A DNA stretch of 64,000 nt from Naegleria gruberi (lineage: Eukaryota): the NCBI GenBank assembly GCA_000004985.1, contig GG738906.1. The stretch is one strand, 5' to 3'. A model generated the notes under the pieces. The model searched no databases. It was not told the DNA's origin and was given only the letters and a program-made list of their open reading frames with translations. A program made the position numbers and the translations under genes. Position 1 is the stretch's first letter; each line of letters starts with the position of its first letter. Positions 56,735 through 58,704 of this stretch are shown here, piece after piece.

Positions 56735-56766
56735 CCCGCTCATTTTTGTTGACGCTTGTTTTGACG
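56735..56766 (+). repeat. Left terminal inverted repeat of the element
   Basis: A 12/12-bp identical terminus plus an 18-bp near-identical block (17/18) shared with the reverse complement of 58652-58704. Confidence 0.55.
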
Positions 56767-56945
56767 ATTTTATAGTCATGAATGACGCCTTTGTTTATGC
56801 TTGTTAAGGTGTCATTGGGACGGTGTTGTGGACGTCAAAATGACGTTTTTTTTCGTCATTTTGACGGTGTCAATTTGGGAGTCATTAAGACGTCACAAAA
56901 AGCGTCCTCAATGACGTCTCAAAGTGTGTCTCCAATGACGTTACA
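56750..56945. repeat. Cluster of ~12 TGACG / GACGTCA (CRE-like half-site) motifs including a perfect 25-bp palindrome AAAATGACGTTTTTTTCGTCATTTT
   Basis: These are direct observations: repeated ttgacg, atgacg, gacgtca and cgtcat at 15-30-bp spacing. The palindrome is at ~56837-56862. Confidence 0.6.
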
Positions 56946-57276
56946 GAATGATCATTAATTTTTGATAAATTGAAATTTTATTGAACTATTCATAATTCTT
57001 ACAAGTCGAAAATCTTTCATCTTGAACCATTTCACATTGAGTGAAACCCAATGCTTTCACACTGTGTGAATTAGCATTGTAAAAGATTTCACACCAAAGA
57101 TGACAAGGAAATTGACAAGAGTTTCTTATAAAAATATGAAATAAAAATTTGAAATTGATGTAAACGAATAGAAATGATATATTATATTATATAATTGATA
57201 ACTGATACGACTTACTAGTATGTTGAGGTATTTTTTTTGAAAAATATTTTAAACTGGTTGCAAAAATAGAAAGTGT

Positions 57277-57821
57277 TTATTTTAGAGATGAAGCCAAATA
57301 TGGAAAGACATTTAATATAATGTAAAGGCCATTTTGTGAATTGGTTTGAAGTGAAAAGAGCCATGCTGGCATATTGCTGGTATGAAATCTTGTTTGATCG
57401 TGTCTTTGAATCTCAATTTGTGAATAATCTGGAGAAAATGAATTGACTTGATAAATTTTTAGCTGTTTCTGTAATAATGGAAGATCTTCTAATTGAAATG
57501 AATCCATTAACTTGTCAATTATTCTCACATATTGAATAATGTGTTGAACTATTTCTTGAATTTCACAATAGCTGGGAATTTCCTGAAATAATTCGAGATA
57601 ATAACGACAGAATGTGATCTTCAATGGATTTCAGGGGATTGATATTCTTTGCAATGGATTTTGGGTGCTTGTGAAAAAAGGATGAAATCAAATTCTTTCC
57701 AACGTCGGTCATCAATTAAATTGAGAAATTTCACCAAAATACCTTCATAATTGTAATACATGTTACCATATGAACAGATAGGATTGAATGGTTGCAATAG
57801 AATTGGAGAAACACTATCCAT
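57277..57821 (-). pseudogene. Two abutting ORFs (66 + 115 aa) separated by a +1 frameshift inside the TIR element; probably a decayed internal gene
   Basis: ORF 57621-57821 ends ...KEYQSPEIH*. The next frame opens immediately (…KITFCRYYLELF…). No GT-AG intron fits. No recognisable domain. Confidence 0.3.
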
Positions 57822-58639
57822 TCCGAGTGGTAGTTCTTGAACTTTACTGTTGGTGCTTACGAATCTGGCTTAATTTTGAATATGAATCCATGGATGCATT
57901 TGCTCGTCTTTGGTGGTTGTATGATTGGAAGAAACATGATCACTAGATCTCTCGATGTGAATACTGATAGTGAATTGAAGCATACCATGTTGACTGCCTT
58001 CAACGGAATTGTTGGTTTGTCACTCTGTTATGTTGGTTTAATGTATAGACCAGAAATTGGTATCTTTGGTGCCTTGTCCTATGTTGCCATCAATGCTGAA
58101 TAAGACAAGTTCCTTTCTATTGTCTTTGTCAAGCTTGGCTCCATTGGTTCCCCAGCCACAATGACTAGAACTGTGCAAGCTGCTGAAGCTATTGCTCTCT
58201 ATGGTTTGTTGTTGTTCCAATTCTGATGTATTACCATATCTTCTGATAGCTTAGGTTCATTCATAGTCTTGTTGAAAAGGTAACCAGTACCACTACCGTA
58301 AATGGTATTATTCAATTCCTCTAGACATTGTCAAAATGCTCATTGGTAAAGTGACTAAAAAACAGTGCTTGGAATCCTGTATGAGAACTGTAGAAAGTTC
58401 TTTGAAGCAGGGGATAAAGAAAGTGTTTGGAAGGCAGTTGATGAAGATGTTAAGCTTTATTTTTTTAGTAAAAATTTTCAAAAATATTCACAAGTCTGAA
58501 ATACGTCACCTCCTCCTTCACTGATTTTCATCATCAAAACAACACAAAACAAACAACAACAAATAAACAACACATTACAACATCAAGTAGAACACAACAG
58601 AATATCGATAATTAACTTTGGAGTAACTTTATGTAAAAA

Positions 58640-58704
58640 CGTCAGTGATGACGTCAAAAAAAGCGTCAATCCACCATCAGGAATGACGAAATAAAATGAG
58701 CGGG
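58640..58704 (-). repeat. Right terminal inverted repeat of the element
   Basis: Its reverse complement begins CCCGCTCATTTT and contains TTGACGCTTTTTTTGACGTCATCACTGACG. Confidence 0.55.

Follow-up and report, generated by a model that had tools for sequence, protein, structure and literature searches.

A repeat-bounded segment with fragments of a host gene between two divergent genes of Naegleria gruberi, a candidate relic of a non-autonomous DNA transposon

Introduction

Among cut-and-paste DNA transposons, hAT elements have YARNG termini and an 8-bp target-site duplication, and CACTA/CMC elements have CACTA(N) termini, a 2–3-bp duplication and, often, a cargo of host gene fragments. The miniature inverted-repeat transposable elements known as MITEs are non-coding, roughly <800 bp long, and present in high copy number. 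The ends of piggyBac have a CCC tip and combine 13-bp terminal with 19-bp internal inverted repeats (PMC5861402, PMC7351741), separated by a spacer of 3 bp at the left end (35 bp) and of 31 bp at the right end (63 bp) (PMC5861402). The cysteine-rich domain (CRD) of the piggyBac transposase binds TGCGT/ACGCA at LE17-21 and LE29-33; the half-site is TGACGCATG (TTGACGCA), the long spacer has an extra TGACGTACG, and a third site lies at LI180-196 (PMC5861402, PMC7351741). Kolobok elements have a TTAA duplication and 5'-RR...YY-3' termini (PMC9587614). DNA transposons have been reported in the genus Naegleria, among them PiggyBac-classified repeats of Naegleria lovaniensis (PMC6125883). Naegleria genomes are compact and nearly transposon-free, and their mobile elements have barely been described. 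Here we analyze a 64-kb stretch of Naegleria gruberi DNA (contig GG738906.1, assembly GCA_000004985.1; hereafter the window) and, within it, a candidate element of 1970 bp at positions 56735-58704, which a preliminary description made from the letters alone had pointed out.

Structure of the candidate element

We interpret positions 56735-58704 as what is left of a cut-and-paste DNA transposon, non-autonomous and now dead, that carried host gene fragments and inserted into a divergent promoter of ~340 bp, a reading to which we give about an even chance. The intergenic region that holds the segment is oversized. Its two flanking genes—a TPR/IQ protein gene on the left and an MHD/SYP1-like gene on the right, divergent, and placed around the element as had been proposed—are separated by 2,309 bp, versus 209–575 bp for the other divergent pairs of the window. 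Once 56735-58704 is taken out, an intergenic stretch of 339 bp remains, which is a normal size for a divergent pair.

Both ends of the segment begin with the 12-mer CCCGCTCATTTT, a putative terminal inverted repeat with a 5'-CCC tip. The two copies (56735-56746, + strand, and 58693-58704, − strand) are exact and inverted to each other, as first described, and are the only two in the window. Inward of the 12-mer lies an 18-bp internal repeat, TTGACGCTTKTTTTGACG, composed of TTGACGCTT[G/T]TTTTGACG, whose left copy (TTGACGCTTGTTTTGACG, 56749-56766, + strand) and right copy (TTGACGCTTTTTTTGACG, 58652-58669, − strand) agree at 17 of 18 positions. The near-identical block that the preliminary description placed directly after each 12-mer is thus present, but its spacing is unequal, as 2 nt separate it from the left 12-mer and 23 nt from the right one. 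Counted from the left tip, GACGC falls at bp 17-21 and GACGA at bp 29-33. A third, degenerate copy of the 18-mer, with 3 mismatches, lies inverted at 56891-56908 (− strand), which corresponds to bp 157-174 of the left end. We found neither the 12-mer nor the 18-mer anywhere else in the 64 kb, and the element as a whole has no similarity to the rest of the window.

Could such ends arise by coincidence? The inverted 12-mer pair by itself is not above chance, as the window contains 53 exact inverted 12-mer pairs within 3 kb and Markov simulation gives ~49 per window. Significance attaches to the composite alone: no other 12-mer pair of the window is followed by a collinear 17/18 block, and 60 simulated windows reached 15/18 at best.

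Inward of the 18-mers, both ends carry GTCATnnnTGACG plus further TGACG motifs, which agrees with the GTCAT..TGACG-type repeats noted before. The left subterminal array (56750-56940) comprises 10 motifs with the consensus WWTGACG (7 on the + and 3 on the − strand) and, at 56889-56936, a 24-bp unit in tandem; the right array (58640-58688) has 5 TGACG/CGTCA motifs, one of them within an exact TGACGTCA and one a CGTCA at bp 17-21 from the right tip, within the 23-nt spacer. The TGACG motifs lie mostly on the + strand in the left array and on the − strand in the right array, and TTGACGCTT is present three times. Counts bear out the dense clustering that had been claimed: against a background of ~0.95 per kb, the two arrays are the densest 200-bp intervals for TGACG in the 64 kb, and they account for the whole excess of TGACG/CGTCA in the window (61 observed vs. 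32 expected). The 25-bp perfect palindrome of the preliminary description did not hold up; at 56833-56866 there is instead a hairpin-capable inverted repeat, CGTCAAAATGACG-T8-CGTCATTTTGACG, with 13-bp perfect arms around an 8-nt loop.

One further motif lies around the ends. GTTGAGGTGTTTT occurs 30 bp outside the left end (56705-56717) and recurs within the element as GTTGAGGTATTTT (57222-57234); in reverse complement it appears again, as ATTGAGGAAGTGTTTT, at 58721-58736, 32 bp beyond the right end. The motif is uncommon in the window, and the inverted symmetry may weakly extend past the 12-mers.

Fragments of a host gene in the interior

What lies between the two arrays? The interior is limited to small or frameshifted open reading frames (ORFs), as had been noted, the longest being 115 aa. 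A six-frame Pfam scan found no transposase in the element, nor is there a transposase domain among the 39 long ORFs of the window (Pfam); the piggyBac DDD transposase (PF13843, with a cysteine-rich domain at the C terminus) is absent from both.

A + strand ORF at 57837-58103 weakly matched the Bax1-I family (PF01027; E = 0.004, below the curated cut-off), and an exhaustive search of representative proteins matched it to heterolobosean GHITM/TMBIM5 proteins. A profile search then led to NAEGRDRAFT_80200, the intact N. gruberi GHITM/TMBIM5 protein (340 aa), whose gene is on another scaffold (396,977 bp, vs. 286,411 bp for that of the window). Mapping by tblastn and Smith-Waterman alignment resolved the cargo as ~450 bp of host-derived DNA in two decayed GHITM/TMBIM5 pieces on opposite strands. 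Fragment A of this Bax1-I-family pseudogene (57843-58217, + strand) corresponds to aa 124-272 of NAEGRDRAFT_80200, to which it is 72% identical (86% if only aligned columns count). It has three in-frame deletions, and at 58101-58103 a CAA codon has become a TAA stop. Fragment B (58197-58291, − strand) corresponds to aa ~59-91, with one frameshift, and weaker similarity continues to 58447 (aa ~10). GHITM residues 92-123 and 273-340 were undetectable in the element. The fragments lie tail to tail with an overlap of ~20 bp (58197-58217) that contains TTGTTG/CAACAA, a microhomology junction that, from its sequence, suggests template switching. Translated, this overlap gives LYGLLLF (aa 266-272) on one strand and EQQQTIE (aa ~85-91) on the opposite one.

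A working GHITM gene is not what we see here, as the domain of ~207 positions is interrupted by the TAA codon and the three deletions, and its N- and C-terminal thirds are missing or inverted. We also considered an intact GHITM gene with introns and excluded it on the in-frame stop, the lack of any plausible intron, and the placement of the fragments on opposite strands. In our reading, the interior is not a decayed transposase but a scrambled pseudo-copy of one portion of a host gene whose intact form lies elsewhere. No non-coding RNA or tRNA was found in the region.

The left ~900 bp and right ~350 bp of the element matched nothing in homology searches, in comparison with GHITM, or in self-comparison of the window. 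Homology assigns no origin to the left part of the interior (56946-57842), whose frameshifted ORF pieces (57277-57821, − strand) have neither a detectable homologue nor a Pfam domain. A decayed transposase in these pieces was considered and rejected, given that they have no Pfam match and no homologue in a search of 5.8 billion proteins. Against the PDB they gave only non-significant matches to dynein (E = 0.7), a likeness that tblastx against the Willaertia dynein gene adjoining GHITM did not support. The idea that the TGACG arrays are a conserved GHITM promoter likewise found no support in the GHITM loci compared: neither Willaertia nor a Logan heterolobosean contig has such arrays there.

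Comparison with piggyBac and other transposons

How do the ends of the element relate to those of piggyBac? Our comparison was made post hoc and with the type element only (Trichoplusia ni piggyBac/IFP2). Both have 5'-CCC...GGG-3' tips, formed here by CCCGCTCATTTT at both ends, and both have bipartite ends—12 + 2 + 18 and 12 + 23 + 18 here, 13 + 3 + 19 and 13 + 31 + 19 in piggyBac—with the same kind of spacer asymmetry (2 vs. 23 nt here and 3 vs. 31 bp in piggyBac). The GACGC and GACGA of the left end, at bp 17-21 and 29-33, stand where the piggyBac CRD binds (LE17-21 and LE29-33), and TTGACGC is common to the 18-mer and the piggyBac half-site TTGACGCA; the two half-sites, however, are direct repeats here and an inverted pair in piggyBac. 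In each case the long spacer holds an extra motif (the CGTCA at bp 17-21 here, TGACGTACG in piggyBac) and there is a third internal copy, represented here by the degenerate 18-mer, on the short-spacer end at bp 157-174, and in piggyBac by LI180-196. Unlike piggyBac, the N. gruberi element has many more motif copies, in an array of ~200 bp, as well as no transposase and host gene fragments inside. The preliminary description had stated that the termini match no classic Tc1, hAT, piggyBac, or CACTA ends; this stands for hAT and CACTA and needs correcting in part for piggyBac, the end design of which is paralleled here. By analogy, then, the ends appear to be built like piggyBac ends, and we do not file the element as a member of that superfamily.

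Other element types share parts of this anatomy. Ac/Ds (hAT) and En/Spm (CACTA, CMC) have short terminal inverted repeats of 11–13 bp; subterminal arrays of short motifs over ~50–250 bp, in both orientations and unequal between ends; and non-autonomous derivatives with unrelated interiors; a cargo of host gene fragments is frequent in CACTA elements. The termini here are neither YARNG nor CACTA but CCCGC, there is no remnant of a hAT or CACTA transposase, and neither an 8-bp duplication (2/8 for TGTCTATT/TTCTTTGG) nor a 3-bp duplication (ATT vs. TTC) is present; the matching TT/TT would at best fit a family with a 2-bp duplication such as Mirage. Kolobok, which has been reported in Naegleria, differs by its termini (CC...GG here) and its TTAA, which is lacking here.

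With Pack-MULE-type elements the segment shares a non-coding body bounded by inverted repeats and an interior of rearranged fragments of a host gene located elsewhere: GHITM aa 124-272 (+) and ~59-91 (−) are inside, and the parent, NAEGRDRAFT_80200, is on another scaffold, as in transduplicating (Pack-type) elements. The terminal repeats are short here versus 100–200+ bp in Pack-MULEs, there is no 9–10-bp duplication, and a single host gene was detected. Compared with processed or duplicated unitary GHITM/TMBIM5 pseudogenes, fragment A is similarly degraded (72% identical to N. gruberi GHITM, with a premature stop and deletions), whereas only aa ~10/59-91 and 124-272 are represented, on opposite strands and flanked by inverted repeat arrays. 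The earlier label of a non-autonomous DNA transposon or MITE-like element is supported in part: the anatomy is transposon-like without a transposase, but at 1970 bp the element is not MITE-like.

A possible history and what weighs against it

If the segment is a transposon relic, it would have landed in what was originally a bidirectional promoter of ~340 bp, 40 bp upstream of the TPR/IQ start codon and 299 bp upstream of the MHD/SYP1-like one. A transposase supplied in trans would have cut at the CCC tips, and its DNA-binding domain may have held the (T)GACG(C) sites, both those around bp 17-33 and those lying deeper in the element, much as the piggyBac CRD does at TGCGT/ACGCA. The element or its ancestor would have picked up, or been patched with, host gene fragments, given that the functional GHITM copy is on another scaffold. 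Such a history, with past mobility, a relationship to piggyBac ends, and repeats that bound transposase, is what we infer from the anatomy. It would explain why a delimited 2 kb of extra DNA sits in a divergent promoter that is normal in other respects and why coding capacity is absent, as well as the asymmetric subterminal repeats behind a short terminal repeat, the foreign gene fragments, and an end geometry like that of piggyBac.

If this reading is correct, the short list of Naegleria elements would gain one more family, gene-fragment capture would be seen in this lineage, and the end pair (32 and 53 bp) could be used to seek an active partner transposase, possibly as a genetic tool for Naegleria. 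The left TGACG array now makes up most of the upstream region of the TPR/IQ gene and is a candidate promoter replacement. A more specific version, in which a heterolobosean piggyBac-related lineage kept the end geometry of insect piggyBac, does not integrate at TTAA, and transduplicated host gene fragments, seems to us very doubtful; were it true, most of eukaryote diversity would share a conserved transposase-end architecture, and Discoba would have a first Pack-like element.

Several points weigh against a transposon origin. One is the target-site duplication, on which the reading fails. The flanks read ...GTCTATT/CCC and GGG/TTCTTTGG and share TT only, so that the TT/TT named in the preliminary description is indeed at best a 2-bp duplication, with nothing beyond it and with little information in T-rich flanks. 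Longer comparisons of the flanks (TATT/TTCT) give no TTAA, 2/8 for TGTCTATT vs. TTCTTTGG, 4/7 over 7 bp, and no match over 3 bp, which leaves TT or the 4/7 as the best alternatives. The closest TTAA lies 15 bp beyond the left end and 79 bp beyond the right end, in neither case with adjoining inverted similarity. Decay of a former duplication is unlikely because the terminal 12-mers are still identical. As regards piggyBac, the TTAA duplication is the hallmark of the superfamily, and the half-sites are direct here and inverted there; the likeness was also noticed after the fact, with one well-studied reference element. PiggyBac elements are not known for capturing gene fragments. N. gruberi is, moreover, transposon-poor, with 0.28% of its genome so assigned by one pipeline.

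Alternative explanations

Could the segment have arisen without transposition? Of the alternatives, the strongest—which we nevertheless consider unlikely—is an ectopic GHITM copy, made by segmental duplication or as double-strand-break filler and then scrambled by inversion or inverted duplication, the inverted ends being by-products of the rearrangement or of duplicated GHITM upstream DNA. It draws on the junction at 58197-58217, where opposite-strand fragments meet in a 20-bp overlap with TTGTTG/CAACAA of a kind typical of template switching and end joining, and on the position of the right array ~165–350 bp upstream of fragment B, which is that of a promoter relative to this fragment. The missing target-site duplication and the transposon-poor genome also fit it. 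However, the inverted similarity is confined to the first ~55–75 bp of each end, and no long inverted-duplication arms are seen; in a local alignment of the left part with the reverse complement of the right part, the 18-mer was the only match. Also against an ectopic copy are the left 900 bp without GHITM similarity and the lack of TGACG arrays around the GHITM genes of Willaertia and another heterolobosean, and the piggyBac-like geometry of the ends is left unexplained by it. Were the segment single-copy, it would be an ordinary rearranged pseudogene.

Quite unlikely, in our estimate, is a regulatory origin, in which the arrays are clusters of bZIP/CRE-like sites (TGACG, TGACGTCA) that serve the two flanking genes, look inverted only as a result of gene divergence, and enclose an unrelated dead pseudogene; this would be compatible with a transposon origin and later co-option. 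Seen from the gene that it faces, either array is oriented alike, the identity comes in islands (12/12 and 17/18) between unalignable spacers, as expected for selected sites, and the left array begins 41 bp from the ATG of the left gene. TGACG pairs 12 bp apart also resemble tandem bZIP sites, the spacing being that of as-1-type elements. On the other side, the distances to the start codons are very unequal (41 vs. 300 bp), and no such array or 12-mer occurs in the other ~35 gene upstream regions of the window. The shared exact 12-mer and 18-mer are also longer than ordinary factor-binding sites. In N. lovaniensis and N. fowleri-like DNA, no TGACG array lies upstream of the MHD orthologue, a weak comparison with distant, non-syntenic loci at 66–68% protein identity.

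Chance resemblance between two independent low-complexity, T-rich, TGACG-containing stretches is highly improbable: inverted 12-mers alone are as frequent in random sequence, the best gapless local alignment of the two ends scores no better than shuffled controls, and the arrays match in both orientations because TGACG motifs lie both ways, but the collinear 12-mer, 17/18 block, and GTCATnnnTGACG are unique and were not reached in 60 simulations, and two TGACG clusters of such density are not expected at all (61 vs. 32).

Searches beyond the window

Searches of viral contigs with the element-end patterns returned 63 and 6 matches, all of them chance matches in high-GC bacterial DNA without TGACG arrays. 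In metagenome contigs there were at least 120 matches, and those listed were of the same high-GC bacterial kind, again without TGACG arrays. One metagenome contig of 63% G+C and bacterial origin (Ga0209648_10149704) contains the 12-mer inside a repeat of ~37 nt (…GCCGCAACGGAGCCCGCTCATTTTGAGCGGGATGAC…) that recurs every ~75 bp; it looks like a CRISPR array unrelated to the element. A literature search for the 12-mer gave unrelated primers only.

A metagenome assembly (PRJEB11402; ENA ERZ929261, Logan ERR1078381) contains N. gruberi contigs that are 99.8% identical to positions 39508-44126 of the window, with 2 mismatches and one indel in 4.6 kb, and is a second, slightly different source of the N. 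gruberi genome. The records of ERR1078381/ERZ929261 list no ORF from the element or its immediate surroundings.

Flanking genes and the rest of the window

The window is gene-dense, with ~33% G+C, and encodes eukaryotic proteins that include CCT/TCP-1, SMC, MCM2, and RhoGEF. Six of its ORFs are exact matches to annotated N. gruberi proteins from a single scaffold of 286,411 bp (e.g., XP_002671326, CCT-theta). The window is thus nuclear DNA of N. gruberi NEG-M, and we rejected a bacterial or viral origin on the eukaryotic genes and the exact matches.

To the left of the element, the first exon of the TPR/IQ gene occupies 56059-56694 (− strand), with its ATG at 56694, and a second ORF follows at 55026-56015. 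The MHD/SYP1-like gene on the right starts not with its long ORF but at ATG 59004, in a short first exon (MGVLCLFVQEQREPKLNLFLHS, 59004-59068, + strand) that is followed by a GTAAGT intron and continues in the ORF at 59194-61707; both the first exon and the GTAAGT intron are conserved in N. lovaniensis and N. fowleri. The 837-aa product of the long ORF is 66–68% identical to MHD-domain (SYP1-like) proteins of these two species, and clear orthologues of the gene (59004-61707) are found in both of them and in Willaertia. A homologue search with it returned no N. gruberi protein, so that the N. gruberi gene set seems to lack an annotation for it. Its neighbors differ on both sides in N. lovaniensis and N. 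fowleri, so that a comparison of synteny is uninformative.

RimK is a mainly prokaryotic family. Two adjacent + strand ORFs of the window (53447-54997) encode a RimK-type ATP-grasp enzyme, with Rimk_N at the end of the first ORF and RimK matching the second (E = 2e-47); they are probably one gene split by a short intron, for which a lateral origin is possible. A second unusually long stretch (~2 kb) without a long ORF, at 9547-11524, separates the gene that encodes a 1580-aa membrane protein with a GPS motif from the gene that follows. Two imperfect inverted repeats (9461-9480 with 11367-11386, and 9563-9584 with 11253-11274; 85–86% complementary) bracket this stretch, which could be an intron-rich gene or another relic.

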